From Candidatus Zhuqueibacterota bacterium (GTDB taxonomy: Bacteria; BS750m-G25), in assembly GCA_016783505.1 (NCBI GenBank), contig JADHWK010000001.1, positions 1 to 64,000 on the forward strand: a stretch of 64,000 bases of DNA. Reading direction: 5' to 3'. The notes under the pieces were generated by a model. The model searched no databases and had not been told where the DNA came from. It was given only the letters and a program-made list of their open reading frames with translations. Both the position numbers and the translations under genes were made by a program. Shown one piece after another: positions 124-47,510 of this stretch. The first letter of the stretch is position 1. Each line of letters starts with the position of its first letter.

Positions 124-153
124 CCGTATCGAAGCCCGGCATTAGGCTTTCGT

Positions 154-21620: not shown

Positions 21621-21621
21621 G

Positions 21622-24244: not shown

Positions 24245-24339
24245 TGCTTTGTATATTTTCATTTTTAGTTTTTAGGAGGGAGTTTCGCCAGTTAGTGAAG
24301 ATGTTTGAAGTAGAATCCATTGTGTACGCATCTTAGGAC

Positions 24340-24390
24340 AATATCCTCAGACAGCATCCTGAATCTAATGGAATGATTGAACGTTTTCAA
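24340..24390 (+). mobile_element. Tiny IS3/IS481-like integrase-core remnant
   Basis: Translates RQHPESNGMIERFQ (PxxNGxxERF rve motif); no surrounding ORF. Confidence 0.5.
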
Positions 24391-24498
24391 TATCAATCTT
24401 GTTTGTGGTATGGTTAGGACTTTATTTATACAACTTGAATTATAAAAGGATAAATTTGGAACAGAAAAATGGAATCCTTTTAAGGAATTGATTTAAAG

Positions 24499-26348: not shown

Positions 26349-26355
26349 GTAATTT

Positions 26356-28182: not shown

Positions 28183-28583
28183 TTTCTATGGAGGTTAACG
28201 AATTTTCATGCTAGGTGGAAACATAGACTTAGAATAGGTACCATAGGTGTGATTAATCCTGATTACCGACGTAGACATTCAGGGAATCCTTATGACTACT
28301 GGATTGCTCATAATACAAGATTGAGAGTTTAGCTAGTAGAGGAACTCAAAAATTTTAGGGTACCGGATTGCTTTTGATTGATAGGGTAAAGTTCAATAAA
28401 TTCTTTAATGAATTTTATGTCCATCCTCCTCGGTTCCCAAACTACGAGAGGTATTTGTTTCATTCACTGCCTATTAAAAAATTGTTTGGCTTTTAGGGAA
28501 AATATATTCATGTCTAATGGAAATAATCAAATAAATGAGAAAGCAAATGCTCAGCAATCTAAATAATTCCTGATAGTTATCTA

Positions 28584-29729: not shown

Positions 29730-29766
29730 GCTATTATTTTTGAAGAATAAAGCAGTTTAACGAGTT

Positions 29767-32087: not shown

Positions 32088-32113
32088 TACTTAAAAAAAT
32101 TGAGAGATAAAAA

Positions 32114-33121
32114 ATGAGGAATATAGTCCAGGCAAGTTTAATTGTTACAAATAGATGTAATGCAAGATGCCAAATGTGTGAAATTTGGAAATATCCAACC
32201 GAACCATCAGAGGAAATAGATCCAAAGTATTATGAAAAATTACCTCCAGGTTTAAGAATTAATGTTACTGGAGGTGAACCCATGATTAGATCAGATATTG
32301 AAGAAACTTTTAAAATTCTTTATCCAAAAGCCTACTTATTGGAATTAAGTACAAATGGTTATTTTACAGACAGAATTGTGCACCTCGCAGAAAAATATCC
32401 AAACATTTTAATTCGGGTAAGCGTTGAAGGATTATCTGCACTTAATGACAAATTAAGAGGTATTCCAAATGGTTTTGATCATGCATTGAGGACAATTTTA
32501 GAGTTAAAAAAAACTAAATGTAAGAATATTGGTTTTTCTGTTGTGATTTCACCACAAAATGTATCTGATCTTCTTCATCTATATGAACTGTGTTGCTATT
32601 TAGGAATAGAGTTGGGAAATTCAGTAATGCACAATTCATGGTATTTTCACAAAATGGATAATCCAATAGCAGGTGATGAAAGAACATGGCGGATGGAAAA
32701 TGAATTTATAAAAGCACACCTAAGGTCGTCCCGTAGAGGTATAAAAAACAAACTGAAGGATTATGCTAGGGCATATTTTAATATGAGTATTTCAAAAAGA
32801 TTACGGGGTGATCCTCCAGGTTATCGCCCTCCATGTGGAGCGGGCACAGATTTCTTTTTTGTTGACCCCTGGGGAAACGTCTCTCCTTGTAACGGTTCGG
32901 ATGATGAATGGATAATGGGCAACTTAAAAGATAACTCGTTTGAAAATATTATGAATTCCGAAAAAGCTAAAGAAGCGATGGAAAAAGTTCGGAATTGTAA
33001 GAAAGAATGTTGCTTTGTCGTCACCGAACGCCATGATATAGTTCGTAGACCATGGAAAGTATTCTACTGGATTTTGAAAAACAAAATAAAATTGGCATTA
33101 AATTTTCCTGTGGAGTTTTAA
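32114..33121 (+). CDS. Radical SAM protein with SPASM/Twitch-like C-terminus
   Basis: CNARCQMC, TGGEP, CGAG...DPWGNVSPC...GNL...C..C. Confidence 0.88.
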   Translation: MRNIVQASLIVTNRCNARCQMCEIWKYPTEPSEEIDPKYYEKLPPGLRINVTGGEPMIRSDIEETFKILYPKAYLLELSTNGYFTDRIVHLAEKYPNILIRVSVEGLSALNDKLRGIPNGFDHALRTILELKKTKCKNIGFSVVISPQNVSDLLHLYELCCYLGIELGNSVMHNSWYFHKMDNPIAGDERTWRMENEFIKAHLRSSRRGIKNKLKDYARAYFNMSISKRLRGDPPGYRPPCGAGTDFFFVDPWGNVSPCNGSDDEWIMGNLKDNSFENIMNSEKAKEAMEKVRNCKKECCFVVTERHDIVRRPWKVFYWILKNKIKLALNFPVEF

Positions 33122-33123
33122 CG

Positions 33124-34227
33124 GTGAAAATCGCTGTTTTCGGAATAAGGGGTTTTCCTAAAGTTCAGGGGGGTGTAGAAAAACATTGTGAGGAATTATA
33201 TCCACGTTTAGCTAATTTTGGTTGTAAAATGGTAGTATTTACAAGGACACCGTTTATTCCAAGAAAGAACAGAGTTAAAAAATGGAAAAAGGTTCATTTT
33301 ATTCATTTATGGTGTCCAAAAGTTAAAGGTTTAGAGGCTTTATTTCACTCTTTCTTGGCATCTTTAATAACTCTATCTAAAAATCCTGAAATGGTTCATA
33401 TACATAATATTGGTCCATCATTATTCTTGCCCTTATTAAAAATATTCGGGTTAAAGGTAATTGTTACTTATCATAGCCCAAATTATGAACATGAGAAATG
33501 GAACTATCTATCAAAAAAGATATTAAAATTGGCTGAGAGAATCGTTATGCGTTTAGCCGATAGGGTTATATTTATTTCTAATTTTCAATTCAAAAAGTTA
33601 GGGTCTCTTTCAAAAAGCCAATGTATTCCAAATGGGATAGTACTACCTAAAGCTCCTTTGCAAAATGATTATTTATCCTATTTGAATCTTAATAATACCA
33701 AATACATTTTAGGAGTTGGTAGGCTTACACCTGAGAAAGGTTTTCTTGATCTAGTTAAAATATTTTCTAAGTTTGATAATAATTGGAAACTGGTAATAGT
33801 AGGCGGTGCTGATTATAAAAGTAAATACTATAATGATATTATTAGACATGCAAACCAAAATAAAAATATTATCTTAACGGGAATATTATCAAGTGAACCA
33901 TTATCTCAATTATATTCTGCCGCTTCATTATTTGTTCTTCCATCTTATCACGAGGGGCAGTCTTTGGCATTATTAGAAGCTTTAAGTTATGGACTTCCAG
34001 TATTAGTAAGTGATATTCATGCAAATAAAGAATTCAAATTACCAAAATATAGGTATTACCCTCTAGCTGATTTAGAAGCTCTTAATATAAAAATTAAAAG
34101 TTCAATGAAAATAGGTATAAATAATAAAGAAAAAAAAGATCAGATTGAAATGTTGAAACAAAACTATAATTGGTCCAAAATTGCGAAACAAACTTTTCAA
34201 GTTTATAATAGTGTCACGAATTTTTGA
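33124..34227 (+). CDS. Glycosyltransferase family 4
   Basis: KIAVFGIRGFPKVQGGVE, PSYHEG..LALLEA; GTG start at 33124. Confidence 0.9.
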   Translation: MKIAVFGIRGFPKVQGGVEKHCEELYPRLANFGCKMVVFTRTPFIPRKNRVKKWKKVHFIHLWCPKVKGLEALFHSFLASLITLSKNPEMVHIHNIGPSLFLPLLKIFGLKVIVTYHSPNYEHEKWNYLSKKILKLAERIVMRLADRVIFISNFQFKKLGSLSKSQCIPNGIVLPKAPLQNDYLSYLNLNNTKYILGVGRLTPEKGFLDLVKIFSKFDNNWKLVIVGGADYKSKYYNDIIRHANQNKNIILTGILSSEPLSQLYSAASLFVLPSYHEGQSLALLEALSYGLPVLVSDIHANKEFKLPKYRYYPLADLEALNIKIKSSMKIGINNKEKKDQIEMLKQNYNWSKIAKQTFQVYNSVTNF

Positions 34228-34241: not shown

Positions 34242-35672
34242 TTGCTAAAACAACACCGCACACTATTTAGCGCCTTATTCATCGCCTTCGACTTCCTGAT
34301 ACTCAACTTAGCTTTTCTGTTGGCCTACCAGATCCGGTTCCTCGGCAGGAGCATCATAGTAGATCAAATCTACTTTCAGTTACTGCTTGTTTCCAACCTG
34401 ACCTGGTTAATAGGAATTTCCGCATTCAGTTTATACGGTGAGAGAAGAACGGAAAGGCTTTTTGCCGAAATCTATCCGGTTCTAAAAACTATTTTCGTCG
34501 TATTTGTTTTAATATTTTCCTTTATCACCCTTTACAAAGCCCATTACTACTCCCGCCTGTTTTTGGGTTACTTTTTAATTTTAATCACTGTTTTACTTAT
34601 TCTGAGCCGCGTCACTACCTGGGCGGTGTTTCGCTGGCTGCGGAAAAGGGGCCGCAACACCCGGAATTTGCTCATCGTTGGCGCCGGAAGGGCCGGGGAA
34701 AAATTACTGGATCTTATTGAGGATAACCCGGGCTATGGCTATCGGATGGCCTATTATTTAGATGATAGGCCCGGTGAGGGGCTGCTGGCCCGCTTGAAGA
34801 AGTTAAAAGATCTCAAAGTAGGAAAAGTTAAAGAACTGGAAGGAATTCTTGCCAACAATCCTATGTCCAAAATGGGGGACATTGAGGAGGTGTTGATTGC
34901 CCTGCCCTTATCGAATGGTAAAGTGATTAATAGCCTGATAAGCACCTGTGATTATTACGGCATAAAGCCTAAAGTCATCCCCGATTTCTTCTGGTCCCTC
35001 CCCCAGAAAATTTCCCTTGACAGCTTTGCCGATGTGCCAGTAATTTCGTTACGGGAATTTCCATTAGATTATGCCCACAACAGGCTTTTGAAAAGATGTT
35101 TTGATATTTTGGTTTCGTCCCTGATACTCTTATTTTATCCCATAATTTATGCAATAATCGGAACCGCCATAAAACTGTCATCCAGGGGGCCGGTATACTT
35201 TAAACAGGAGCGCACTGGGTTGAATAATAGGAATTTCGACTTTTATAAATTCCGTTCCATGCAGCAGCATTCACCTGAGATAGCCAACACCCTTCAGGCC
35301 ACCAAAGATGATCCCCGCATTACGGCGGTGGGACGCTTCTTAAGGAAAACCAATCTGGATGAGATTCCCCAGATCATCAATGTGTTCAAAGGAAACATGA
35401 GCTTAGTCGGTCCCCGCCCCCATATGCTGAAGCATACCGACCAATACCAGAAACTGGTGCCCAAATATATGGTTCGCCACCTTATAAAACCCGGCATGAC
35501 AGGGTGGGCCCAGGTGAACGGCTATCGGGGGGAAACTAAGCGGGTGGAATTGATGAAAAGAAGGGTGGAATATGACCTTTATTACATTGAGAACTGGTCG
35601 TTCTGGTTTGATATAAAGATTTTATTCCTTACCCTATGGGTGGTGCTCAAAGGGCAGGAGATGGCGTATTAA
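34242..35672 (+). CDS. wcaJ: WcaJ-like undecaprenyl-phosphate hexose-1-phosphate transferase
   Basis: N-terminal TM helices, [44 protein letters not shown]. Confidence 0.9.
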   Translation: MLKQHRTLFSALFIAFDFLILNLAFLLAYQIRFLGRSIIVDQIYFQLLLVSNLTWLIGISAFSLYGERRTERLFAEIYPVLKTIFVVFVLIFSFITLYKAHYYSRLFLGYFLILITVLLILSRVTTWAVFRWLRKRGRNTRNLLIVGAGRAGEKLLDLIEDNPGYGYRMAYYLDDRPGEGLLARLKKLKDLKVGKVKELEGILANNPMSKMGDIEEVLIALPLSNGKVINSLISTCDYYGIKPKVIPDFFWSLPQKISLDSFADVPVISLREFPLDYAHNRLLKRCFDILVSSLILLFYPIIYAIIGTAIKLSSRGPVYFKQERTGLNNRNFDFYKFRSMQQHSPEIANTLQATKDDPRITAVGRFLRKTNLDEIPQIINVFKGNMSLVGPRPHMLKHTDQYQKLVPKYMVRHLIKPGMTGWAQVNGYRGETKRVELMKRRVEYDLYYIENWSFWFDIKILFLTLWVVLKGQEMAY

Positions 35673-35884
35673 TCAGAAATTAGAAACTTGAAGTCAGAAA
35701 CTAGAAAAAGAAACTAGAAACCTGAAATCAGAAATATGAAACTAGTTGTAGCGCAGCGGAAACCCGTAAGGGAAACAAGAAACTAGAGGGGTATTGAAAT
35801 TCAGGGAGAACGGAAAAGAAATGGATAAATGGATAAACGGCTGAAAGGCAAAATTGCTAAATGGCTAAACTGTTGAATGGCTAA
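35671..35884 (+). repeat. Degenerate 7-mer tract (GAAACTA/GAAATCA) followed by an 8-mer tract (ATGGATAA/ATGGCTAA)
   Basis: Visible periodicity; related tracts at 36787-36833, 37182-37312, 37767-37830, 40529-40555, 41430-41552, 44386-44455, 45726-45860, 54866-54906. Confidence 0.85.
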
Positions 35885-35978
35885 AAATACAATTTAACGA
35901 CGTAGTAATTCAAATAATATATCCAAAAGTAATTGAGACCATAAAATTTCGTTTTTTAGTTATAAAGTGAGGTAACCC

Positions 35979-36257
35979 ATGATGACAGAAATTATTGAAT
36001 TGAAAAAAAAGGGAATATATCTTCGCAGAAAATTTCTTGAACAATTAGGTTTGAAAACTGGTGACCGAGTGATTATTGAGGTGAAGCCTAAAAGCGTAGA
36101 GGTTGTTCCTTTAACCCATAATCAAGCAACCCTTAAGCTTCTTGAACGGCTTTCACTACCTGCTGGAGCGCTAAAGAATAAAGCTGAGAATCCAGATGCG
36201 AGAATAGATTTACAAGATGAGATCGGCGGAGATATCTATGATGAGAGTATTGATTGA
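35979..36257 (+). CDS. AbrB/MazE-type antitoxin
   Basis: KGIYLRRKFLEQLGLKTGDRVIIEV swapped-hairpin motif. Confidence 0.75.
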   Translation: MMTEIIELKKKGIYLRRKFLEQLGLKTGDRVIIEVKPKSVEVVPLTHNQATLKLLERLSLPAGALKNKAENPDARIDLQDEIGGDIYDESID

Positions 36258-36720
36258 TACTCGCCTTTGGGGGTTGGCTTTGAAGGTCCCCTATTATGAT
36301 GACAAAGATCCAGTTAAGGAATATGCTCTGCAGGCTGATCACTTTATTAGGGAACGCTTAGAGCAGGATCTGATTTGCGTTACGACACAATTGCTGGCTG
36401 AAATTCATCATGTCTTGACGACCAGGGGTAGGAAACTACCATCATCTGATGCAGAGGTGGTGGTTAAAGAAATTCTGGATAGCGAGCGTTCTATTTTTCG
36501 TAATCCTAATAAGGATACAATCTTACAGGCTCTACGGCTTAGCACCAAATGTGATATCCATATCTGGGACTTTCTACTTGTATTGCCATTTAAAGGCGAA
36601 TTGGACAGAATTTATACTATGGATCCTCATTTTAGAGAATGTAAGCATTTGCAAGTTGCCCCTGTCGAAAATCCACTGGGGGTATGGAGGTTAGAAGGCG
36701 CATTATTAGGTAAAAATTAA
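36241..36720 (+). CDS. PIN-domain (VapC-like) toxin
   Basis: MRVLIDT, LAEI, IWDFL, YTMDPHF. Confidence 0.85.
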   Translation: MRVLIDTRLWGLALKVPYYDDKDPVKEYALQADHFIRERLEQDLICVTTQLLAEIHHVLTTRGRKLPSSDAEVVVKEILDSERSIFRNPNKDTILQALRLSTKCDIHIWDFLLVLPFKGELDRIYTMDPHFRECKHLQVAPVENPLGVWRLEGALLGKN

Positions 36721-36746
36721 TTCTTCTATGATTTTACTGTAAGGGG

Positions 36747-36820
36747 CCGGTTTACTTTAAGCAGGAGCGCAGCGGAAACCCGTAAGGGAAATCAGAAATC
36801 TGAAACTAGAAGTGTGAAAT
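36747..36820 (+). repeat. 74-bp direct repeat (second copy 37727-37800), beginning with a wcaJ GPVYFKQER fragment
   Basis: One mismatch between copies; 36743-36771 matches wcaJ 35186-35214 with two synonymous changes. Confidence 0.9.
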
Positions 36821-37186
36821 ATGAAGTATGAAAAAGAAGAAAAACCGGAAGATCTAAAAGTCAGAACTAAGAAGTATGCCTTACGGGTGATTAAACTGGT
36901 AAATACCCTTCCCAAAAACATGGTAGCCCATGAAATCGGAAGACAGTTGTTGAAGGCGGGGACATCGGTAGGTGCGAATACGCGATCAGCATATCGTGGG
37001 AGGTCAAGAAAAGAATTTATTTCCAAAATAGGGGTTGTTATTGAAGAATGTGATGAATCGCTTTTCTGGATGGAAATTTTAGTTGAATCTGGAATTATGA
37101 AAGAAAATATTTTAAAACCTTTAATGAATGAGGCTGACGAATTGATTTCCATATTTGTATCTATTTCAAAGAAAAACAAGCAATAG
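36821..37186 (+). CDS. Four-helix-bundle protein (23S rRNA IVP/TIGR02436-like)
   Basis: DLKVRTKKYALRVI, RQLLKAGTSVGAN, EFISKIGVVIEECDESLFWMEIL. Confidence 0.9.
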   Translation: MKYEKEEKPEDLKVRTKKYALRVIKLVNTLPKNMVAHEIGRQLLKAGTSVGANTRSAYRGRSRKEFISKIGVVIEECDESLFWMEILVESGIMKENILKPLMNEADELISIFVSISKKNKQ

Positions 37187-37332
37187 AAAACTAGAAAGCC
37201 GAAACTTGAAGTATGAAAAAAATATGAAAAACAATTATTTCCAACTTCCACCTTTTCCAAAGGGATCCCGAGACTTCGGGACAAGTTTCTAGTTTCAATG
37301 TTTTTAGTTTTAAAATAGAGGGGGTTTTACCA

Positions 37333-37602
37333 ATGGCAATCAAAGTGGATTTATCGGAATTTAAGGTGTTAGATTCACCGAACGATATTGAAGTTCCTGA
37401 TTGGATGAGCAGGATAAGAAGCGAAGATATGCCAGAGTTTATTGCGGATATTGTGAAGGCTTATTTATATGGATTGAGAACCGGGGATTTTTCAAAGGCT
37501 AAAGAAGAACTGGAAACCTGGCGAGAGACCGTTGAGCTATGTTATGATCTTCCTGAAAAGGAGGAGGTGTCGGTTCGGTGGAGGGACCTTAAGGATGTAT
37601 GA
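37333..37602 (+). CDS. Putative antitoxin
   Basis: 89 aa, acidic, ending VRWRDLKDV; overlaps a RelE-like remnant. Confidence 0.5.
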   Translation: MAIKVDLSEFKVLDSPNDIEVPDWMSRIRSEDMPEFIADIVKAYLYGLRTGDFSKAKEELETWRETVELCYDLPEKEEVSVRWRDLKDV

Positions 37603-37720
37603 GAAGGGCAAGTACAGGATAAAAACCCCTTTCGGTTATCGCATTGTCTACGAAATAGCCGAGAAGGAATCATTGGTTAGGATTTATAAGATTGATACAC
37701 GGGTAAGTATTGGTTATTAA
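37595..37720 (+). pseudogene. RelE/ParE-like toxin, internally deleted
   Basis: MYE joined to KYRIK..GYRIVYEI.....V.IYKI (RelE C-terminal half); only 41 codons. Confidence 0.6.
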
Positions 37721-37971
37721 AATGGTCCGGTTTACTTTAAGCAGGAGCGCAACGGAAACCCGTAAGGGAAATCAGAAATCTGAAACTAGAAGTGTGAAAT
37801 CAGAAATATTAAACTAGAAAGCAGAAGTTAGTGAAGATGAGCTATGCCGGTTTTTTACTAATCCTAACTTGGATCTGTATGGACCGGCTTTCATTTTTTT
37901 CTTGTGAAAGGGGATTTTTTGTTGTATATTTTAAAAAATCACTAACCACTTTGTAATCCAGAAGCATTATT

Positions 37972-38289
37972 GTGAAAAAAGAGATAGATTTTATATACTA
38001 CTTCGATTTAGACAATCGACTTAGAGTAAGTGCATTGAAGGAAAAGAAGGAAATACAGGAATTTATTGTTCAATATGAAGCCTTTATTCAAAAGAAATGG
38101 CGGTCCATTGTTCGATACGACACAAGTCACGGTTTTATTCATAAGGACACTATGCATCCAGATCAAAAACAGGACAAATTCCCTATATTTTTTATGACCT
38201 ATGAAGTGGCATTTACCTATGCCATAGCCGATATCAAGAGGTTTTGGCAAATATATCGGGATAATTATGAAAAGGAGATAAGGAAATGA
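37972..38289 (+). CDS. Small TA-like toxin candidate (RYD..HG..H motif)
   Basis: IVRYDTSHGFIHKD; ATGA overlap with the next gene; TTGTGA-17-TATATT promoter at 37902-37930. Confidence 0.55.
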   Translation: MKKEIDFIYYFDLDNRLRVSALKEKKEIQEFIVQYEAFIQKKWRSIVRYDTSHGFIHKDTMHPDQKQDKFPIFFMTYEVAFTYAIADIKRFWQIYRDNYEKEIRK

Positions 38290-38537
38290 AGCAAGAAGAA
38301 TTAGCGGAAAAGAACTTGGATCTCTTCCATGAATTCATGATGTATGTCTTAGAGAAGCCCGATATCCTTGACCGAATACCCAAGGGTGCTCAGCTTGTTA
38401 TTCTTCCTGAGGATGATCCGGAACTTTGTCAGAAAAATCTGGAAATTGTACGTAAGAGAAAGGAAGAAGGTCAAACGGTGGTAACCGTGAAGATGCTCAC
38501 CCCTAAACGAGTAGTGCCCAAAATAGCAGTGTCTTAG
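38286..38537 (+). CDS. DUF5647-like small protein, putative antitoxin
   Basis: KNLDLFHEF..YVLE.PDIL..IPKGAQLVILPEDDPELC pattern (family recalled, not searched). Confidence 0.55.
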   Translation: MKQEELAEKNLDLFHEFMMYVLEKPDILDRIPKGAQLVILPEDDPELCQKNLEIVRKRKEEGQTVVTVKMLTPKRVVPKIAVS

Positions 38538-38579
38538 TTTGAACTAATTTGTATAAATGACTACTGTCCTGATAATTCC

Positions 38580-38918
38580 AATGATCCCCGAATAACAAAA
38601 TTTGGAAAATTTATCCGTAAATATAGTCTCGATGAATTGCCGCAATTATTCAATGTTCTAAAGGGTAATATGAGTCTTGTGGGCCCAAGGCCATGCTTGC
38701 CTTATGAATGGGATGCTTATGACAGATGGCATAAAAGGAGGCTTGATGTGAGACCTGGATGTACGGGGCTCTGGCAGGTAAGCAGCAGAAGCGAAGTTGG
38801 ATTTGATGATTCTGTCATTCTCGATTTATACTATATTCAAAACATGTCACCCTGGTTTGATCTTCAATTAATTCTAAAAACCATACCAACGATGATTACC
38901 GGATATGGTGGAAAATGA
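38580..38918 (+). pseudogene. 3' fragment of a second, paralogous sugar transferase
   Basis: [38 protein letters not shown] through to a stop; no N-terminus. Confidence 0.85.
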
Positions 38919-39480
38919 GCAACGAACAAGACGAACTGAACTAACATTTTTACTAAAAGCTGAGTAAAGCACATTGTTTTACAAGCAAAGTATGTGTGGA
39001 GCAAACAGCAATCAATTAGGTTCCCTCCCCCTTGCCCCCCACCTATCCTCCCCCCATAATGGTGGGAGAACAAAGAAGGGGGGATTAATATGGGGGAGGG
39101 TTTCGGTCAGGTCAGTCAGGCGGGTATTTTGCAGAACTATCGCAATTGATAATTTAGGGGTTTTATGTTTGGAACCGCTCTAAAGAGCGATTCTGGTTAA
39201 CTAATTGCTAAACAAAATATTAACTAGAACCTTATCCCGATGCTTCGGGATAGGTTCTGGACATTAGCAACGTTTACTAGTTGTGCCACAGACCCAGGCG
39301 CATGACTGATCGGTCAGGCGCCCGACTGAAGGGAGGGGAATGGAAAGGATAGATACTAATGACATTCCGCCGTTGCCAACGAATGGCGATATCCGCTCAT
39401 ATTTTTTATGAAGTTGACCAAAAGGCAACCGTAGCGGTGAATGAAATATAGGTATTTATTAAGATAAGGAAGGGTTTGAG

Positions 39481-39723
39481 ATGGCATGCCGTAAAAAAGT
39501 GTTGAGCGTTCCCCCCTCTTTTTTGGAGATAGAACAATTAGCCAGATACTACGCAAAAGGGAAAGGGATTTCATTTTCAGCCTTTGTCTGGCAAGCAGTT
39601 GAGCATTATATACGGGAACAATTAGGTGAAGAAGAACTTCCTGCTGATGTTATCTGTGAACTTGATATTATGGAAAAAGAAATGGATCAGGGTGGGTATC
39701 TTCTGCTTCAGAACTTAAAATGA
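39481..39723 (+). CDS. RHH-like antitoxin
   Basis: LSVPPSFL....YAKGKGISFSAFVWQAVEHY; ATGA overlap with RelE. Confidence 0.65.
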   Translation: MACRKKVLSVPPSFLEIEQLARYYAKGKGISFSAFVWQAVEHYIREQLGEEELPADVICELDIMEKEMDQGGYLLLQNLK

Positions 39724-39977
39724 CCTGGGAGGTCAGGATATCCCGAGAAGTTGTTCGATACCTTTCCCGCATGGAAGAGAAGCGGAGCCAGATACTCCGA
39801 GAAATATTAAAAGGCTTTCGTGAAAATCCCTTTGTGGGAGATGTAAAACCGATAAAAGTACGTCCCAGCATGTATCGCAGGCGAGTGGGTGCATGTAGAA
39901 TCATCTAATCGATTGACTATGAAGCTCATATTGTTAAAGTACTGAGGATAGGAACAAGAGGGGATATCTACAAGTAG
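39720..39977 (+). pseudogene. relE: RelE-family toxin with nonsense mutation
   Basis: MTWEVRIS...YRRRVGACRII*SID...VKVLRIGTRGDIYK*; in-frame TAA at 39906-39908. Confidence 0.85.
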
Positions 39978-40088
39978 TGAAGACCAGAGTTCACTGACCT
40001 TATTATAGAATGGGCTTCGGCATAGAAAGAGTACCTAATTTTATAGATTAATAGCTAACAATCATTATCTTTTTAGTTTATTTTTGTT

Positions 40089-40182
40089 AGGGTTTGTTCG
40101 TTCAGCGGTCAAATAGAAGATTTTGTAAAAAGAGTGACAGCAGTTCTGAAGAGTGAATCTCAAAATTGAAGTCAAAATCGAT
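40089..40182 (+). pseudogene. 3'-end fragment of the 45048-45494 toxin-like gene
   Basis: Aligns with 45414-45507 (FSGQIEDFVKRV.AVL.SESQN* and downstream bases). Confidence 0.85.
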
Positions 40183-40214
40183 TATGGTCCATATTTCTGA
40201 AAATCCTTATCTAA

Positions 40215-40530
40215 CAGGCCACTAAAGATGATCCCCGCATTACGGCGGTGGGCCGCTTCTTAAGGAAAACCAACTTGCCCCGATAATTCACAACCTAATA
40301 ATCACAGTTACCAATCATTTACATTAACTATGACATAGCTACCAAAATATTACCAATTAACGCATTAATTATCGGGGTTGGACGAGATTCCTCAGATCAT
40401 CAATGTATTCAAAGGAAACATGAGTTTAGTCGGTCCCCGTCCCCATATGCTGAAGCATACCGATCAATATCAGAAGCTAGTGCCCAAATACATGGTCCGC
40501 CATTTAGTAAAACCCGGCATGACCGGGTGA
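40215..40530 (+). pseudogene. wcaJ fragment A (QATKDDPR...PGMTG), interrupted by a MITE
   Basis: Aligns with 35295-35504 over 70 codons. Confidence 0.92.
40278..40377. mobile_element. 100-bp MITE, copy A
   Basis: Perfect 11-bp TIR ccccgataatt/aattatcgggg; ttg duplicated on both sides; intact wcaJ shows the empty site. Confidence 0.9.
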
Positions 40531-40590
40531 AAATTAAAAACTAGAAAGCAGAAAGAAGACTTTTTGATCTGGGGACAAAGAGAATAAAAG

Positions 40591-40848
40591 GTGAAAAGTA
40601 TTGACTATACACGCCATGCCAGAAATAAGTTTGATATCCTGAAACGGCATGGCTTTGAGGTGACTCCAGATCAGGTTGAGGAAACTGTATTGAACCCTGA
40701 AAAGGTGATCCCACAGCCAGGCGGCAGATTCATCGCCCAGAAAGGGATCACCGAGCGGCACGTGCTACGGGCTGTGTACCGGGAGGAAGAAGAGACACGT
40801 AAGGTGATCACTTTTTACCCAGGAAGGAGAGAGCGTTATGAAACTTAA
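40591..40848 (+). CDS. DUF4258-like toxin candidate
   Basis: YTRHARNK, VLNPE, HVLRAVY, VITFYP. Confidence 0.75.
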   Translation: MKSIDYTRHARNKFDILKRHGFEVTPDQVEETVLNPEKVIPQPGGRFIAQKGITERHVLRAVYREEEETRKVITFYPGRRERYET

Positions 40849-41059
40849 CTATGATCGAGAAGAAGACATCTTGATGATTGAAACAACCCCTGAAGGCACC
40901 ATTGATCACGCTGAGCACACGGGGCCGTTCATAGCGCATTTCAGTCGGGATGGGCAACTCTTGTTATTGGAAATTCTCGATGCCAGTGAATTTCTGTCCT
41001 CGCTGATTAAGGCCACCCTTCGCGGGCAGGAACAAGAACTACCATTTACTGTTGGATAG
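40838..41059 (+). CDS. DUF2283-like antitoxin candidate
   Basis: MKLNYDREEDILMI...DGQLLLLEILDAS. Confidence 0.8.
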   Translation: MKLNYDREEDILMIETTPEGTIDHAEHTGPFIAHFSRDGQLLLLEILDASEFLSSLIKATLRGQEQELPFTVG

Positions 41060-41064
41060 AAAAC

Positions 41065-41430
41065 GCAGACTGAAGCAGCAACGGCTGGACCAAAACGAGG
41101 CCATTGGGGCCAGTCTTCAAAATAAAGGACGATCCACGAGTTACGCAGGTAGGCTATTTTTTAAGGAAAACCAACTTGCCCCGATAATTCACAACCTAAT
41201 AATCACAGTTACCAATCATTTACATTAACTATGACATAGCTACCAAAATATTACCAATTAACGCATTAATTATCGGGGTTGGATGAGATTCCCCAGATCA
41301 TCAATGTATTCAAAGGAAACATGAGCTTAGTCGGTCCCCGGCCCCATATGCTTATGCATACCGATCAATATCAGAAGCTGGTGCCCAAATACATGGTACG
41401 TCATTTGGTAAAACCCGGCATGACAGGCTG
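41065..41430 (+). pseudogene. Chimeric sugar-transferase fragment B, interrupted by a MITE
   Basis: Left part GPVFKIKDDPRVTQVG (non-wcaJ paralog type); right part wcaJ-like through PGMTGW. Confidence 0.85.
41179..41278. mobile_element. 100-bp MITE, copy B (identical to copy A, same site)
   Basis: Base-by-base identical to 40278-40377; ttg duplicated on both sides. Confidence 0.9.
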
Positions 41431-41620
41431 GAAGGTAGAAATTAAAAACTTGAAATCAGAAACTGGAAGTATGAAAAGAATTCGAAAGGAAAATCACTGT
41501 TATCTTAGATTTTCTCCCGAGACTTCGGGACAAGTTTCAAGTTTCTAATTTTAAAGTGGGTGGTGGTCAAGGGGCAGGCCTGCTCGCCCCTTTTCAAAAA
41601 GGTAATGTCTTTGCACAATT

Positions 41621-41645
41621 GGAGGCGAGCCTGCTCGCCTTTTTT
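41621..41645 (+). terminator. Rho-independent terminator-like hairpin, with a partial tandem copy at 41571-41605
   Basis: aggcgag-cctg-ctcgcct followed by a T-run; gcctgctcgcc..tttcaaaaaggta occurs twice. Confidence 0.45.
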
Positions 41646-41802
41646 CAAAAAGGTAGGGTTACTGTTGACGAGGTGTTAGAAGAGATCAGGAAACAGGCTC
41701 AGGAAAAGATCAATGGCTGAACGGCCTTTGGGGCAATGGTCTGAAAGTTACATCTTTTAAAAAACAAAAAATTAACTTGATTAGTATTGTTCATTTTGTT
41801 CG

Positions 41803-41975
41803 TTGCAAAAGAAAGGAGTCAAAACGAACATTGCTGTTGTTGGAATTGGATATTGGGGACCAAATTTGGTTAGAAATTGTGTGGAGAATCTTGACATCAA
41901 GGATGTTTATGCCGTAGATATTGATCCATCCCGGTTAGAATTTATCAAGTCAAAGTATAATTCCGTTATTATCGT
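41803..41975 (+). pseudogene. N-terminal fragment of a Gfo/Idh/MocA oxidoreductase
   Basis: IAVVGIGYWGPNLVRN...VDID; truncated at a palindromic element near 41995. Confidence 0.8.
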
Positions 41976-42097
41976 TGAGCCCGGTAATATTGAGATTAAC
42001 CCACAGTTTTAACGGTGGGATTAAGCTGTAAGAAATCAATTTTCAACCCCTTTAGGGGTTTTTAAAGAAGGTTCAGCGTTATAATGCGGAGATATTT

Positions 42098-42232
42098 ATG
42101 AATGTTCCATTTCTTGATTTAAAAGCCCAGTTACTAAAGATCAGATCAGAAATACAAAAACGATTTTCAGAAATCATAGATAATACATCCTTTGTCTGTG
42201 GAAAAGGAGTGGCAGAGTTTGAAGATAATTTT
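42098..42232 (+). pseudogene. 135-bp duplicate of the 5' end of the degT-like gene at 43222
   Basis: Near-identical to 43222-43356. Confidence 0.92.
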
Positions 42233-42331
42233 AAAGCGATCCGATACCGTTAGTTAAGCGCCCGACTGATTTTGACCTTTTTGCAATAAACCCATTTATC
42301 CTCCGAAATTTTTCAGCAGGATAAATATTAA

Positions 42332-42634
42332 ATGAAACATCTTCCTATTTTCTTAAGTAAGTATTTCTGGGAGGTAGATTTTGCATCCCTTGATGCAGAA
42401 AAATACCCTAAATATGTCATCGAAAGGATATTAGAGTATGGGGATATTAAGGCAATTCGGTGGATGAAGAAAAATTTCAGTCTTGATGAGATTAAAAATG
42501 TCCTGTATAACACAAGGGGACTGACTTTAAGAAGTGCCACCTTTTGGGCAATAGTTTTGGGAATACCAAAAAAGAGTATCAAATGTTTGAGCAAGCCCTA
42601 TCTGGAAATACGAAAACTGTTCTGGCCTTATTAG
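42332..42634 (+). CDS. DUF6922-like antitoxin partner
   Basis: YFWEVD...LD......YVIERILEYGD motif. Confidence 0.75.
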   Translation: MKHLPIFLSKYFWEVDFASLDAEKYPKYVIERILEYGDIKAIRWMKKNFSLDEIKNVLYNTRGLTLRSATFWAIVLGIPKKSIKCLSKPYLEIRKLFWPY

Positions 42635-43221
42635 GAGACTCAGATGTTTTAGCTTATTCCTATCTTGCCGGTGGAACAGGAATAGCTCTTCAACTTGGTC
42701 ATAGAATATCAATAGACCTTGACTTCTTCACTCCTGAGGAGTTTGATATTGATGCTCTTGTTAAAAGACTTAATGAAATAAACCAGTTTACACTTGAGGA
42801 AAAAAAATGGGGAACCGTAACGGGTGAGTTTGGCGAAGTGAAGTTTAGCATTTTTGTCTACCAGTATCCAGTAATTTTGCCCTTCAAATCATTTCTCAAA
42901 GTAAATATTATGGATGTTCGTGAAATTGCGGCGATGAAACTAGAAGCAATTGCAACGAGGGGAAAGAAGCGGGATTTCATTGACCTTTATTTTGTCGTGC
43001 AGGGAATTGAAGGACTTAAAGGCATTCTTTCGCTGTATAATAAGAAATACGGAAAATTTGGGAACAAAATGGTTCATATTATGAAAGGCCTTACCTATTT
43101 TGAAGATGCCGAGGCGGAGGAGTTACCAAGAATGTTAGTCCCGGTGGATTGGAAAGAGGTAAAGAGATTCTTTGAAGAAGAGGTCAGAAAAATAGGAAGG
43201 GAGTTCTTGGAAGGAGGTTAA
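42583..43221 (+). CDS. AbiEii/AbiGii-like nucleotidyltransferase toxin
   Basis: YLAGGTGIALQLGHRISIDLDFF, AAMKL.AI..RG.KRDFIDLY. Confidence 0.88.
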   Translation: MFEQALSGNTKTVLALLGDSDVLAYSYLAGGTGIALQLGHRISIDLDFFTPEEFDIDALVKRLNEINQFTLEEKKWGTVTGEFGEVKFSIFVYQYPVILPFKSFLKVNIMDVREIAAMKLEAIATRGKKRDFIDLYFVVQGIEGLKGILSLYNKKYGKFGNKMVHIMKGLTYFEDAEAEELPRMLVPVDWKEVKRFFEEEVRKIGREFLEGG

Positions 43222-44313
43222 ATGCAAGTTCCATTTCTTGATTTAAAAAGCCAGTTACCAAAAATCAGATCAGAAATACAAAATCGGTTTTCAGAAATCA
43301 TAGATAATACATCCTTTGTCTGTGGAAAAGGAGTGGCAGAGTTTGAAGATAATTTTTCTAAACTTCACGGAGTGAAGTATACAGTCGGTATAAGTTCAGG
43401 CACAGACGGCAATCATTTAGCCATGTTATGTTTAGGAATTGGAGCCAATGACGAAGTCGTTGTTCCTGTCAATACATTTATTGCCACAGCAGAGGGTATA
43501 TCGCATGCAGGGGCCACACCGATTTTTTTAGATGTAAATGAGAAATCATTTAACATAGATGTAAACAAAATTGAACAGTCAATTACCCCAAAAACTAAAG
43601 CCATTAATCCGGTTCATCTATTTGGTAAACCGGCTGAAATGCAAACAATTCTTTAAATTGCAGAGAAATATAACCTTAAGGTAATTGAGGACGCTGCCCA
43701 GGCCCATACGGCTTCTTATAATAATAAAAAAGTAGAAAATTTAGGGGATGTGGCCTCATGGCCTTTTTATTCCGGGAAAAATCTCGGTGCCTGGGGTGAA
43801 GCCGGAGCTATTACTACAAATAGCGAAGAGATTAATAAAAAAGCAAAAGATTTACGCGATCATGGCTCTGATAAAAAATATTACCATGATTTAATAGGTC
43901 ATAACTATCGTATGTCTGAATTTCAAGCCGCTGTCCTCAATGTAAAAATGAAATACATTGAAGAATGGACAGAAATGCGAAGATCGAATGCCAAAAAATA
44001 TTATGAGCATTTAAAGGATATAGGACAAGTAATAACCCCAGTTGAAATGGACGGCGTCCGACATATATACCATTTATATGTAATCAGAGCACCAAATCGT
44101 GATAAGCTTCAGGATTTTTTAAAGGAAAATGGAATCGCTACAGGTTTACATTATCCTATACATTTGCACCTTACAGGGGCTTATTCGCGTCTTGGCTACA
44201 AAAAAGGCGACTTCCCTGTTGCAGAAAAGTTAGCAGATGAAATTCTTTCACTCCAAATGTATCCAGAATTGTCCGAAGAACAGACAGATTATGTATGTGA
44301 AAAAATAAAATAA
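43222..44313 (+). pseudogene. DegT-family aminotransferase with internal stop
   Basis: In-frame TAA at 43654-43656; the frame continues IAEKYNLKVIEDAAQAH...GKNLGAWGEAG. Confidence 0.88.
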
Positions 44314-44519
44314 TTTTATTGTAACCTATAATTGCATAGTATTCTAAGAACCATAACTTTTGCCATAAGGGGGATTGGAACGTTTTAATCAGAAACTAGA
44401 AACTTGTCCCGAAGTCTCGGGATGAAATCTGAAACTAGAAAAAAGAAACTAGAGGCGTATTGAAATTCAGGGAGAATAGGAAGAAATAGATCGATGGATA
44501 AGAAAAGAAATGGGTAAAT

Positions 44520-44670
44520 GCCCCCCTGGGAGCGTAGCCTCCTACCCTAGTCGCAAAGCGATCTTGCCTGCCCGTGGCCGGGCTACGGCCAGGGGGACCG
44601 GGCACGGCGGACCGGTCGGCCTGCCCGGCCAGGGAGACCCGCCTAGGGGCAGGTAAGGCCCGTCTGGGGA
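44520..44670. repeat. GC-rich nested palindromic insertion in an 8-mer tract
   Basis: Abrupt GC-rich block with tggcc/ggcca, cctgccc/gggcagg and gcccgtctggg motifs, between ATGGATAA-type repeats. Confidence 0.55.
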
Positions 44671-44773
44671 TAAGTGGATAGATGGACAAGTGGATTTTTT
44701 GTTGTAAATTAACAATAAGAAAATTAAAAGAGGGAACCGAAGGGGGCTTTTTTACCAATAGGAGGATACAATT

Positions 44774-45058
44774 ATGAGTACAGAAAGCAAATCAAGGAAA
44801 ATGTCCAAAGAGGAGTTTACCCAGAAAGTAAACAGCCTTGAGCTGTCGCCCGATAAGGCTATCGCAAAGCTAGCCGAACAGCTTTATAAGTATGAGAAGA
44901 AATATAATCTACGTTCGGAGATATTCTACAAGCTAATCGTAGGTACGCCTGCCGAGGACACCCCGGATTTCATTGCATGGGCTATATGTTATAGAACTTA
45001 CTTCCGCACGCTTCAATCAAAGTTGTCCATTGAGGAGGTCGGTACTGGTGTTGTATGA
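44774..45058 (+). CDS. Antitoxin candidate (TumA-like)
   Basis: L..YEKKYNL.SE.FY.........DF..W pattern; AGGAGG RBS. Confidence 0.6.
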   Translation: MSTESKSRKMSKEEFTQKVNSLELSPDKAIAKLAEQLYKYEKKYNLRSEIFYKLIVGTPAEDTPDFIAWAICYRTYFRTLQSKLSIEEVGTGVV

Positions 45059-45494
45059 TTCCTACCAGCGGAGGCTGATTATTGATCGCTGTTGGCTGAT
45101 TTATGATCTTATTACGGAGACATTCGCTGTTCCACACCAGTTTCACATCGATTTTCCTTTAATGGTGGAGGTTGCTTTGATCTCCGGCTATCTTCAGGTT
45201 CTTGTGGAGATTAGTCGAAAAGGTCATTTGTTACATATCCACGAGGAATACGATTTTAGAAACCACGAGCTTGTAATCAGGGTCTACAGCTATAACCTTT
45301 TGCATAAAAGCAAACACAATATCATCCGGGCTGACCCCCTTCCCCACTATCGAGTTGATTATAGACGTCGCAAGCTGGCGCATTTTCCTCATCATCTGCA
45401 CGAGGAAAAAGGAAGGATTTGTTCATTCAGCGGTCAAATAGAAGATTTTGTGAAACGAGTGGCAGCAGTTCTGGAGAGTGAATCTCAGAATTGA
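45048..45494 (+). CDS. DUF6516/TumE-like toxin candidate
   Basis: YSYN......IIRADPLPHY......FPHHLH motif; GTG start overlapping the antitoxin. Confidence 0.65.
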   Translation: MLYDSYQRRLIIDRCWLIYDLITETFAVPHQFHIDFPLMVEVALISGYLQVLVEISRKGHLLHIHEEYDFRNHELVIRVYSYNLLHKSKHNIIRADPLPHYRVDYRRRKLAHFPHHLHEEKGRICSFSGQIEDFVKRVAAVLESESQN

Positions 45495-45505
45495 AGTCAA
45501 AACCG

Positions 45506-45718
45506 ATGGATCTTGTAAAGACGCCTGAAAAGCATATTGATATCGAGAATTTTATAGAGCCTGAAGATCCTAAACAATCTAAAGACCCAAAGGTATATGT
45601 CCAATCAACCTTTTTCGAAAAGATAAATTCTTTACCATTGTTTGGAATGATGAACTTAAGATGCAAGAGTGAAAAAGTACGTAAAAAGTACCATAAGCTA
45701 TTAATACAAGAAGATTAA
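45506..45718 (+). CDS. Small hypothetical protein
   Basis: Open frame only; no recognised motif. Confidence 0.3.
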   Translation: MDLVKTPEKHIDIENFIEPEDPKQSKDPKVYVQSTFFEKINSLPLFGMMNLRCKSEKVRKKYHKLLIQED

Positions 45719-46141
45719 GTTGTTTTGAAATCAGAAACCTGAAAATAAAAGTATGAAAAAAATATAATGACAATTTTCTATCCAACTTCGACCTTTCCCA
45801 AAGGAATCCCGAGACTTCGGGACAAATTTCTAGTTTCCAGTTTCGATGTTTCTAGTCTCAAAATAATGGAGCTGAAATAGAAATGGAAGGAAAAGAAAAA
45901 ATTTTAAATTTTCCAGCTCTGTGGAAATATCTTGCTGACCCCATATTATTGAAAAATAGGTTCCAATGCATTAAAAATAAAGGAATTAAATCGATCCTTG
46001 TTTGAAACAAGTGGATGTCTTTATTATTCAGAACCTTAACGTTGGCTTATTAGTAACTTTTTCAATAAAATAGGGACATTAGGTTAAATTCCAGGAGAAC
46101 CATAATATTAATGTTTCAAATCTTGCCATGATAACCTCAAT

Positions 46142-46165
46142 AAAAAAGCCCCTCGAAAGGGGCTT
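46142..46165 (-). terminator. Rho-independent terminator after tRNA-fMet
   Basis: Minus strand aagcccct-ttcg-aggggctttttt. Confidence 0.85.
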
Positions 46166-46176
46166 AAATTTTATTG

Positions 46177-46250
<74 letters not shown>

Positions 46251-46258
46251 TTATATTA

Positions 46259-46287
46259 AATTTAACAATTTTTAATTCAAAAGTCAA
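46259..46287 (-). promoter_or_regulatory. Sigma70-like promoter of tRNA-fMet
   Basis: TTGACT-17 bp-TAAATT with an extended TG, ending 8 bp before the tRNA. Confidence 0.65.
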
Positions 46288-47510
46288 GATTTTTTATCGT
46301 TTTTTACTCTGGTAATTAAAATAATCTGCGGTCTTCTTTCCGAGGTCTTTAGAGTGGTAAATTGATAGTTCTCCCAGGTGATCCTCTGCTTGGTTCTGGG
46401 TATCTCCCCCAATTGGCTGGTTATGAACCCGCTCAAAGTGCGGTAGTTCCCATGGGGGAGGGAAATTCCCAATTGCGAGTGCACATCCTGGACCCGCATC
46501 CGGGCACTAACAACCACCTTCCCCTCCTTGATCTTCCAATACCCCTTATAGACCCGGTCAAACTCATCTTCAATGGTCCCGAAGAGCACCTCAAGGACAT
46601 CCTCGAGGGTCACCAACCCCGCGGTTCCCCCGTATTCGTCCACGGCAATGACAACGGTGGACCGGCTTTTCCGCATCTCCCGGAAGAGGAGTCCGATGGA
46701 CTTGAACCCCGATACAAATTTGACCCCCCGCATAATTTCGTTCAACTGAACCGGCCCTTTAAACATATCCTTTGCGAATACCATTCCCCTTATGTGATCA
46801 ATATCCCTCTCATACACTGGGAGCTTGGTATAGCCCGATTGCAAGAAGGTCATCTTGACCTGAGAAAGGGGTGTTTCTAAATCCAGACTCACAATTTCAG
46901 CCCGGGGGGTCATAATATCCCTAACCGACATCCCTGCCAAACCGAGCACTCTCGATATAATCTTCTCTTCTTGCTTTCCCAAGCCTCCCCCCTCCCGGGC
47001 GGCCTGAAACACGTATTTTAGATCCCGGCGGGTAAACACCGTATTTCTCATGTCCCGGTCCAAATTAAAAAGTCCGCTTAGCCGCCTGGATATGGAAGCT
47101 GTCACCTTCACAACCGGAAACAGAACGGCATATACCACCCAAAAGGGAAAGACCAGCCCCAAAAGGGCCCGGTCGGCCATTTCACGAAACAGACTTTTAG
47201 GAATGATCTCACCCACAACCAGTATAAAGCAAGAAACGAGGACCAAAATAAGACCCTCCGAGAGACCCCATACCTTCATGGTGATAGTAGCCAGGGAAGA
47301 GAAGGCGACCAAGGCGATGTTGTTTCCCACTAAGATAGTGGATAGAAAATTATCCGGCCTTTGTAGAAACCGGCCTATAAGCTTAGCTCCCCTCCTTTGT
47401 TTACGCTCCCAGATCTTTATTCGATAGCGGTCTGCGGCTAAGAAGCTGATTTCAGTGGCGGAGAAAAAAGCCGATAGGAGAAGAAGCAAACTGAGCCATA
47501 TCCATATCAT
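46284..47510 (-). CDS. CNNM/hemolysin-family protein (DUF21-CBS-CorC)
   Basis: SAFFSATE, ILVGNN, GEIIPK, IMTPR, VDEYGGTAGLVTLED. Confidence 0.92.
   Translation of the reverse strand: MIWIWLSLLLLLSAFFSATEISFLAADRYRIKIWERKQRRGAKLIGRFLQRPDNFLSTILVGNNIALVAFSSLATITMKVWGLSEGLILVLVSCFILVVGEIIPKSLFREMADRALLGLVFPFWVVYAVLFPVVKVTASISRRLSGLFNLDRDMRNTVFTRRDLKYVFQAAREGGGLGKQEEKIISRVLGLAGMSVRDIMTPRAEIVSLDLETPLSQVKMTFLQSGYTKLPVYERDIDHIRGMVFAKDMFKGPVQLNEIMRGVKFVSGFKSIGLLFREMRKSRSTVVIAVDEYGGTAGLVTLEDVLEVLFGTIEDEFDRVYKGYWKIKEGKVVVSARMRVQDVHSQLGISLPHGNYRTLSGFITSQLGEIPRTKQRITWENYQFTTLKTSERRPQIILITRVKNDKKS

Follow-up and report, generated by a model that had tools for sequence, protein, structure and literature searches.

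How does a piece of a gene come to lie downstream of the intact copy and to differ from it almost exclusively at synonymous sites? The question is raised by the first 64 kb of contig C1 (JADHWK010000001.1, 197 kb; these 64,000 nucleotides are called the window) in a metagenome-assembled genome (MAG) of a Candidatus Zhuqueibacterota bacterium, which comprises 89 contigs and 2.51 Mb and is ~60% complete. A polysaccharide-synthesis locus occupies 3.6-35.7 kb of the window on the + strand and ends with wcaJ (34242-35672, +), an intact open reading frame (ORF) for a predicted WcaJ-type undecaprenyl-phosphate glucose phosphotransferase of 476 aa, which serves here as the anchor of all comparisons. 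Between this gene and a tRNA-Met gene lie 10.5 kb in which small ORFs, toxin-antitoxin (TA) modules, sugar-gene remnants and transferase stubs are interleaved. At least five transferase stubs (G1, G2, S3, S1 and S2) are stacked 3' of the intact wcaJ, and S1 (40215-40530) is the piece in question. We show that S1, which is of the anchor's lineage, diverged under strong purifying selection, and we propose that it probably stems from the 3' part (codons 352-421) of a different wcaJ allele that once worked, and that it was left stranded when the gene end encoding the C-terminus was displaced.

S1 is a pseudogene fragment: a complete frame is absent, and the codons 352-421 that are left are split by a 103-nt insertion and closed by a TGA. 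Its left part (40215-40277, +) corresponds to codons 352-372, with four synonymous and no non-synonymous differences in 21 codons. Its right part (40381-40530, +) corresponds to codons 373-421, with 14 synonymous and one non-synonymous differences in 49, followed by the TGA (40528-40530); 3' of codon 421, heptamer-repeat DNA takes the place of the remaining gene. Once the inserted 100-bp element and the second TTG of its flanking repeat are taken out, 40215-40277 joined to 40381-40527 aligns without a gap to 35295-35504, that is to 70 codons of wcaJ. The original prediction had counted 18 synonymous codon differences and one isoleucine-to-valine change over these codons, and this count proved exact. 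By the Nei-Gojobori method, S1 and the anchor differ by 18 synonymous changes over 46.0 sites (a synonymous divergence of ~0.55) and by two non-synonymous changes over 164.0 sites, the second of which comes only from path-averaging of CTT>TTA. The resulting dN/dS is 0.022 (Fisher p 8.5e-12), far from the value near 1 that had been named beforehand as an outcome that would refute the prediction. The 20 base differences are distributed over codon positions 1/2/3 as 3/0/17, and random single changes in this sequence would alter the protein in 70-78% of cases. If both copies had drifted, no more than one non-synonymous codon would turn up among the 19 with a probability of 1.3e-9; the fairer model, with a constrained anchor and a drifting local copy, gives 3.3e-6.

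The second stub, S2, which lies 901 nt downstream of S1, allows these differences to be polarised. Eleven of the 20 are private to the anchor, including the isoleucine-to-valine change, five are private to S1 and all synonymous, and four are three-way. The single amino acid difference thus separates the anchor from both S1 and S2 and is not S1 decay; as all S1-private changes are synonymous, S1 has no detectable point decay. With a dN/dS of 0.02 across the catalytic core, these data uphold the core of the original prediction, namely that S1 diverged inside a functional allele and not as a decaying local copy.

That last origin deserves to be spelled out. The 3' part of wcaJ could have been duplicated locally, for instance as a long target duplication at an insertion, and have decayed neutrally afterwards. 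Long direct repeats around addiction-type units without mobility genes are on record (PMC2853133), and the array itself contains a pair that fits such an origin: a 5' stub of a DegT-type aminotransferase gene (42098-42232) and its counterpart at 43222-43356 are 94% identical and differ by two synonymous and four non-synonymous codons, with a dN/dS of 0.75. This pair flanks an AbiEii/DUF6922 pair and looks like a local duplication with decay, which provides an internal contrast to S1. For S1 itself, the probability of 3.3e-6 under the fairer model, the synonymous divergence and the lack of any private non-synonymous change make local duplication extremely improbable.

The kinship of the stubs points in the same direction. 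In a tree built on the 70 codons with 28 rows (the anchor, S1, S2 and the 25 nearest homologues obtainable), the first three group together in a single clade (support 99/97). Against the anchor, the genome's other Bac_transf genes reach 35% and 33% identity, and no second close paralogue was found in the assembly; stubs tracing to such a paralogue had been set out in advance as the other outcome that would refute the prediction. Because the three sequences form one clade and the paralogues are distant, S1 and S2 are best regarded as alleles of the anchor's own orthologue and not as pieces of known paralogues. Since near alleles are lacking in the collections searched, the tree by itself only shows that the stubs group with the anchor. 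A second paralogue as the source of S1 was also considered and was not found in the 2.51-Mb assembly, which represents ~60% of the genome.

How, then, would a segment of a working allele be stranded behind wcaJ? In the locus the gene itself is intact, its 3' part recurs downstream in direct orientation with cassettes in between, and the displaced copy bears the mark of purifying selection (dN/dS 0.022). We suggest that cassette-bearing DNA, mostly TA modules, was spliced into the 3' part of wcaJ by recombination in conserved motifs. At each event wcaJ would stay whole, a homologous 3' end being brought along or retained, while the other copy would be stranded downstream. Repeated events, together with replacement of the whole polysaccharide locus, would then pile up stubs and cassettes between wcaJ and tRNA-Met, and a comparable pile-up would arise at the 5' end of the locus. 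That the differences are synonymous only would follow if every stub, whether in this genome or in a donor, belonged to a gene that worked up to the stranding event. After stranding, S1 would have suffered structural damage only, by the 100-bp element after codon 372 and the loss of codons 422-476. Replacement of the whole locus presumably contributed; S3 and the oxidoreductase and DegT remnants stem from other gene sets. Either copy, S1 or the anchor end, could be the immigrant, no donor allele having been sampled; we infer that the other allele lived in another strain.

The insertion mechanism, which we likewise infer, could follow several routes. In a first one, site-specific integration, the attachment site of the incoming element would carry the replacement gene end. 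In a second one, a single crossover would take place by homologous recombination with circular DNA bearing a wcaJ fragment; linear imports were also considered. A recombinase acting in trans, or since lost, would be a further route. Homology-based recombination is favoured because of the absence of an integrase, the variety of target genes and the mosaic pattern among the three alleles.

This variety of targets became apparent when the genome was compared with itself. Among 288 local direct-repeat pairs, 38 pair-ORF rows have one copy in an ORF of at least 150 aa and its partner outside it, and the ORFs at 24 such repeat places were scanned with Pfam. Five further genes have their last 66-130 nt repeated 0.7-1.7 kb downstream with a TA module in between: lon (MNT/HepT module), a CDF transporter gene (UPF0175 and a PIN-like protein), a UDG-family gene and ffh (a PIN protein in each case), and an ETF-domain gene followed by two 3'-end stubs with ParE-type pairs between. 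In the order lon, CDF, ETF-domain, UDG-family and ffh, the sites are C1:105099-106024, C1:124707-125648, C23:884-2681, C24:27043-28811 and C36:54945-56206 (L183, L184, L104, L185 and L188). The repeats usually take in the stop codon and a few bases past it, and the lon stub continues as far as a stop codon of its own, which has diverged further. Not every repeat pair involves a gene end, some being intergenic (e.g. on C54).

The same repeat architecture also holds cargo other than TA modules, at C28:21822-23369, C33:11805-16535, C57:6751-9529, C63:8871-9990 and C81:27293-30959 (L186, L187, L190, L191 and L200). The genes carried include those for a mannosylglycerate synthase, a 1431-aa BadF/BcrA-type activase, a B12-radical SAM protein and an FkbM methyltransferase, as well as a three-gene block between 121-nt repeats that are 98% identical. 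In another organism, the metagenome locus L021 (1019-3645; also L026 and L065) has a transferase gene 44% identical to the anchor, then a 307-aa ORF, after which comes a 140-nt copy of the last 47 codons of the transferase (88.6% DNA and 85% protein identity). The insert of L021 is flanked by 33-nt perfect repeats.

These recurrences invite a bolder and more tentative idea, that cassettes of TA or metabolic genes spread without a recombinase of their own, each using a piece of a conserved host gene's end as homology arm, entering through a crossover inside this piece, leaving the gene whole and stranding the previous end; this may be so, although we would not bet on it. If true, the stubs at wcaJ, lon, ffh and the UDG-family, CDF and ETF-domain genes would be footprints of one active mobility system, and the addiction modules would ensure retention of the integrated copies.

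Several observations weigh against the displacement of a wcaJ gene end as we propose it. The donor allele was not found. In the 60 other genomes the best non-self match to the anchor is 43% identical, all of these genomes being kin at the level of 'same domain' only (some match being present in 50 of 61 genomes); in metagenome contigs, with 115 confirmed stretches, the best match reaches 60% over the C-terminal residues 306-471; and among 5.8 billion proteins the best non-self match is 42% identical over full length, the sole close entry being the protein of the window, on three contigs. The genome in which we looked is itself just ~60% complete. No tyrosine recombinase (PF00589) was found on contig C1, all eight matches of the genome lying on other contigs. 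S1 stops at codon 421, short of the stop expected for a freshly displaced end; as to the other displaced ends, S3 reaches its own stop and S2 keeps a last-codon remnant. The other gene-end stubs of the genome display a weaker excess of synonymous over non-synonymous codons (7:4, 3:5, 8:3, 2:0, 6:4 and 8:3). S1 and S2 share two lesions, the element after codon 372 and the junction with heptamer DNA at codon 421/422, in spite of 11+1 codon differences between them. Finally, a second copy that had formerly worked would give the same dN/dS near 0.

Some of these points can be placed in context. The weaker excess at the other gene ends is expected because protein tails are poorly constrained, and taken by themselves the codon counts of these stubs would be compatible with local duplication too. 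The element-rich MAG 'Candidatus Zhuqueibacter pondensis' gives a best match to the anchor of 39%. With respect to recombinases, a general scan detected no such family among 27 ORFs of the array, serine recombinases not having been searched separately, and none was detected near the lon, CDF, ETF-domain, UDG-family and ffh repeat sites. Integrase-driven islands were rejected on the lack of a PF00589 match on contig C1.

The last point against displacement, the formerly working second copy, opens an alternative of its own, in which S1, S2 and S3 would be the remains of further resident polysaccharide loci with their own working transferases, recently broken up, with no import at all. The array does hold an oxidoreductase stub and a DegT pseudogene in the same orientation, and S3 (38577-38918, +) belongs to a different transferase lineage: it comprises an entire 3' end with the stop codon that belongs to it, covers PF02397 profile positions 91-178, and is 41% identical in amino acids to the anchor and 76% to the transferase gene of metagenome locus L061. 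This scenario requires, however, that at least three copies of the 70-codon region be cut at nearly the same left boundary, the starts of S1, S2 and S3 all lying at most ~10 codons from the DDPRIT motif. Moreover, S1 and S2 are alleles of the anchor's orthologue, and if close paralogues had stood in tandem, homogenisation would be expected. Extra loci also fail to explain why housekeeping genes present in single copy (lon, ffh) have the same pattern of stubs and cassettes. We therefore consider resident loci an unlikely source, though one to be taken seriously.

The shared lesions call for a closer look at S2 and at the element. S2 (41095-41578, +) consists of a left part, of another Bac_transf subtype, of the 100-bp element (41179-41278) and of codons 373-422, followed by a repeat element (41437-41560) and the last-codon remnant (41557-41578). 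Left of the insertion, the different transferase subtype (GPVFKIKDDPRVT) differs from the anchor by nine synonymous and six non-synonymous codons in 21. Over the 49 codons right of it, anchor, S1 and S2 are roughly equidistant, the pairs differing by 14+1, 12+2 and 11+1 codons (synonymous plus non-synonymous), the last figure being that of S1 against S2. The differences between anchor and S2 are unevenly spread: only two of the sites lie in the ~77 nt that follow the element, against 13 in the remainder. S1 and S2 share 11 states against the anchor.

In S1 the element spans 40278-40377 (+), the second TTG then extending to 40380. It has 11-bp terminal inverted repeats, CCCCGATAATT and AATTATCGGGG, perfect over the 11 bp, and a 3-bp TTG flanking repeat. 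It sits after codon 372 in both S1 and S2, and the two copies are identical in 100 of 100 bases. Both stubs carry AACTTGGA at the element site, where wcaJ has AATCTGGA. In this genome only these two full copies and one solo right end (C36:47396) are present. Elsewhere, public genomes contain 70 copies with these termini, at 68 loci (L109-L176), 66 of the 68 in the 'Candidatus Zhuqueibacter pondensis' MAG mentioned above. These outside copies measure 82-112 bp, mostly 83 or 107 bp, and 45 of the 70 have 4-bp TTAA duplications; the termini thus define a real element family. The 100-bp element shares its 11-bp termini with this family but departs from it by its 3-bp TTG flanks, its unrelated interior and the location of its two full copies at one codon of two stubs. 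We take it to resemble miniature inverted-repeat elements with YTAR-like targets, possibly of the IS5 group. A known RNA or intron was also considered for the element, and Rfam at gathering thresholds returned only tRNA in 35600-46400.

How two stubs so different come to share these lesions is not explained by two dead copies drifting apart, which is ruled out because the shared lesions enclose 12 codon differences, 11 of them synonymous. For the same reason, lesions in common with mostly synonymous differences, a simple serial displacement is inadequate. Possibly the element entered S1 and S2 separately, both having AACTTGGA; possibly short patches were copied in from working alleles; or the unit made of S1-right, cassette and S2-left may have entered via a crossover inside the element. 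As a bolder addition, the element might home to the conserved transferase motif where this reads AACTTGGA; two unlike stubs would then be expected to carry identical copies.

A further alternative is that the stubs are maintained in place, either by short-patch gene conversion with wcaJ or by selection as homology arms or as a recombination reservoir. The mosaic pattern, with its uneven spread of anchor/S2 differences and the 11 states common to S1 and S2, agrees with conversion, and patchy conversion with working alleles as the source would be in keeping with shared lesions combined with synonymous differences. If the present anchor were the source, on the other hand, the 20 differences would be erased and not kept; the stubs encode the same protein sequence and so offer no variation on which selection for a reservoir could act; and S1 is interrupted and truncated. 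Maintenance in place appears to us improbable.

A last alternative concerns the array as such. As the genome is a metagenome bin of 89 contigs and ~60% completeness, and strain variants occur in the sequencing runs, variants of one gene could have been strung together in the assembly. We checked this with Logan contigs from two studies, X1 (2024) and X2 (2020), one run of which may be the source sample of the assembly, the other then being independent. These contigs cover 39311-40289, 40395-41190 and 41311-42193 with no differences, and link the TumE-like stub upstream of S1 to S1-left, S1-right via the cassette to S2-left, and S2-right to the following genes; they end inside both 100-bp copies, as these form an exact repeat. 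Depth is even across 40010-42179 (~41-60 in X1, 44-83 in X2). With stubs linked in contigs of two studies, an assembly artefact is scarcely credible. The runs do hold strain variants in the last quarter of wcaJ, for example at 35474 and 35504, and one low-depth contig (6.8 in X1, 4.6 in X2) follows S1 to 40502, then has seven other letters and continues as the anchor from 35487; it may be a hint, and only that, of a third allele continuing past codon 422. A variant having lost the array was also considered, on account of the joints 35730/35734>44424 and 44479>35954, whose depths are equal (19.8 in X1, 8.13 in X2); we take both joints to belong to a single contig that represents a variant strain's spacer behind wcaJ, and not a loss of the array. 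Further joints, with short sides (20-30 letters) or low depth, were set aside. In both runs, the spacers 39142-39575 and 44350-44783 have a summed contig depth of 5-12x that of neighbouring bins, and hence hold repeats common in these metagenomes.

Around S1 and S2, the array continues the same theme. Directly after the wcaJ stop lies an array of heptamer repeats (GAAACTA/GAAATCA) with a hairpin, GCGGAAACCCGTAAGGG (35673-35790, +; catalogued as D2 and D15), and this heptamer/hairpin module recurs 3' of several stubs. A cassette with a MazE/AbrB-like antitoxin ORF (PF04014 E 1.8e-4, below gathering score) and a 167-aa partner follows (35979-36720, +); no family match was found for the partner and no NCBIfam match for the cassette. 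The two smallest stubs come next, both limited to codons 316-324 (GPVYFKQER): G1 (36744-36770, +; D13, D15), which joins the hairpin/heptamer module at AGCGCA, and G2 (37724-37750, +; D13), which has the same codons and junction and whose unit is 90% identical to that of G1 over 100 nt. The original prediction that these stubs also differ only synonymously holds, on a tiny sample: two synonymous differences in G1 and three in G2, none non-synonymous, over nine codons each. Further on are a DUF7718/DUF5647 pair identified by Pfam (37972-38537, +), S3, two small overlapping ORFs with a TA-like layout and no family match (39481-39908, +), and the 3' stub of a TumE-like toxin gene (40089-40182, +; D14), 91% identical to 45414-45507, with four synonymous and three non-synonymous codon differences in 26. 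Between S1 and S2 lies a DUF4258-like/DUF2283 pair (40591-41059, +; PF14076 weak, E 0.0043; PF10049 E 1.1e-7).

Past S2, remnants of another sugar operon appear, an oxidoreductase N-terminal stub and the 135-bp DegT-type 5' stub (41803-42253, +), then the DUF6922/AbiEii type IV TA pair, also from Pfam (42332-43221, +), and the DegT-type aminotransferase pseudogene (43222-44313, +). The latter consists of two ORFs (43222-43656 and 43750-44313) with a gap of ~94 bases, and is 43-49% identical in amino acids to the intact DegT gene at 6972-8078. A TumA/TumE-like pair (44774-45494, +; PF20126, with NF045776 and NF045777 matching below their cut-offs) precedes the end of the array. Heptamer arrays are found at 35676-35745, 36774-36837, 37754-37831 and 44417-44452. 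A repeat element of ~130 nt (37179-37320, 41437-41560 and 45719-45865), confined within this genome to the array, is made of GAAACTA-type heptamers, a hairpin TCCCGAGACTTCGGGA and inverted heptamers, and is located directly after stop codons and at stub junctions.

The assignment of the anchor rests on PF02397 over residues 284-470 (E 8.8e-69), PF13727 (CoA_binding_3) over residues 61-236, and the WcaJ equivalog model TIGR03023, passed with 481.7 bits against a cut-off of 410.75 and covered over positions 2-453 of 453; by these models it is a WcaJ-type polyprenyl-phosphate glucose-1-phosphate transferase. Its GC at third codon positions (GC3) is 0.55, against 0.21 for the glycosyltransferase gene upstream, so that by this measure wcaJ looks native. 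In the middle of the polysaccharide locus (16-34 kb; 16000-34200) GC is 26-33%, the genome mean being 46% and the core past 46 kb ~52%; the block has the look of imported DNA, and composition changes where wcaJ starts. On the other side, the tRNA-Met gene (46176-46250, -) has its 3' end toward the array, and past it GC rises from ~40% to ~50% and the gene strand switches.

At the locus's opposite end, an array at 153-3861 (+; D1, D3, D10, D12, D19) mirrors the one on the right. It contains three 5' stubs, each with the promoter region and the first ~95 codons of the first gene of the locus (3653-4525), and each followed by a small cassette with HicB-like pairs or a clan AA protease-like pair. 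The excess of synonymous differences is modest there. The blocks had been described as differing mostly synonymously, which is true of a conserved 25-codon block (2-3 synonymous against 0-2 non-synonymous codons per pair) but not of the signal-peptide block (2-3 against 4-7). A 53-nt direct repeat (153-205 and 3532-3584, 98% identical) with a palindrome, CAGTCGGGCGCCTGACCG, brackets this whole left array, and related palindromes are present at 39305-39340, 58096-58131 and 61754-61789.

If S1 has the origin that we consider probable, gene fragments next to polysaccharide loci can have been stranded from other alleles that worked, instead of being decayed local copies, and S1 would preserve sequence from sister lineages never sampled. 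Taken together with the sites at housekeeping genes, S1 suggests that this lineage acquires TA modules by the replacement of gene ends. Both points bear on the exchange of addiction modules and of surface-polysaccharide loci among uncultured marine bacteria. Searching the literature for TA cassettes flanked by duplicated gene ends, and for remnants of polysaccharide loci, returned nothing specific, which does not show absence from print.

Replacement of O-antigen and capsule loci is known to proceed through recombination in conserved flanking genes. The present locus is similar in that a block of foreign composition lies beside a native-like flanking gene, wcaJ, with remnants of other sugar genes at the edge. 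It differs in that clean double crossovers leave no duplicated flank, whereas a stack of stubs calls for events that are one-sided or involve a single crossover.

A second comparison is with insertion with long target duplication. As described by Furuta, Abe and Kobayashi 2010 (PMC2853133), restriction-modification units lie between direct target repeats of 46-423 bp, often at the 3' end of a gene and with neither transposase nor integrase, and the repeats are nearly identical (e.g. 417/423). Addiction-type units between long repeats, free of mobility genes, are common to both systems. In contrast, S1 is 89-97% identical to the anchor and nearly all differences are synonymous. As the repeats are not near-identical and differ almost only synonymously, S1 was not made in place by a target duplication; nor did the genomes and metagenome contigs searched yield a relative with an empty site.

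A third parallel is the icd/icdC pair of Escherichia coli. There, the e14 prophage (and phage 21) inserts into the gene's 3' part and brings a replacement end with it, and the displaced C-terminal fragment is kept downstream as the pseudogene icdC, with mainly synonymous and conservative differences (PMC13626634). S1, too, would be a displaced gene end downstream of an intact gene with divergence of a synonymous type. While e14 has its own site-specific recombination system, no integrase (PF00589) is found here on the 197-kb contig; and the inserts here are TA modules of 0.5-1 kb, several stubs are stacked, and S1 is both truncated and interrupted.

Stacking is a feature of rhs loci, where dissociated gene ends form arrays downstream of the intact gene and every such end opens with some of the conserved part, and where single-crossover recombination with circular DNA has been proposed for the stacked displaced tips (Jackson et al. 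2009, PMC2935791). The five stacked transferase stubs, each opening in the conserved part, are reminiscent of this organisation. In rhs, however, the tips encode different toxins, which are the point of the exchange, whereas here the same protein segment is repeated and the variable cargo is the intervening cassette. The displaced gene-end scar is thus of a known kind, exemplified by icd/icdC and rhs, and is seen here unusually cleanly because S1 spans the most conserved motifs of the enzyme. Particular to this genome are that clean signal, the way in which stubs of several lineages are stacked on either side of a polysaccharide locus, and the recurrence of the arrangement, with TA cargo but no recombinase, at housekeeping genes.

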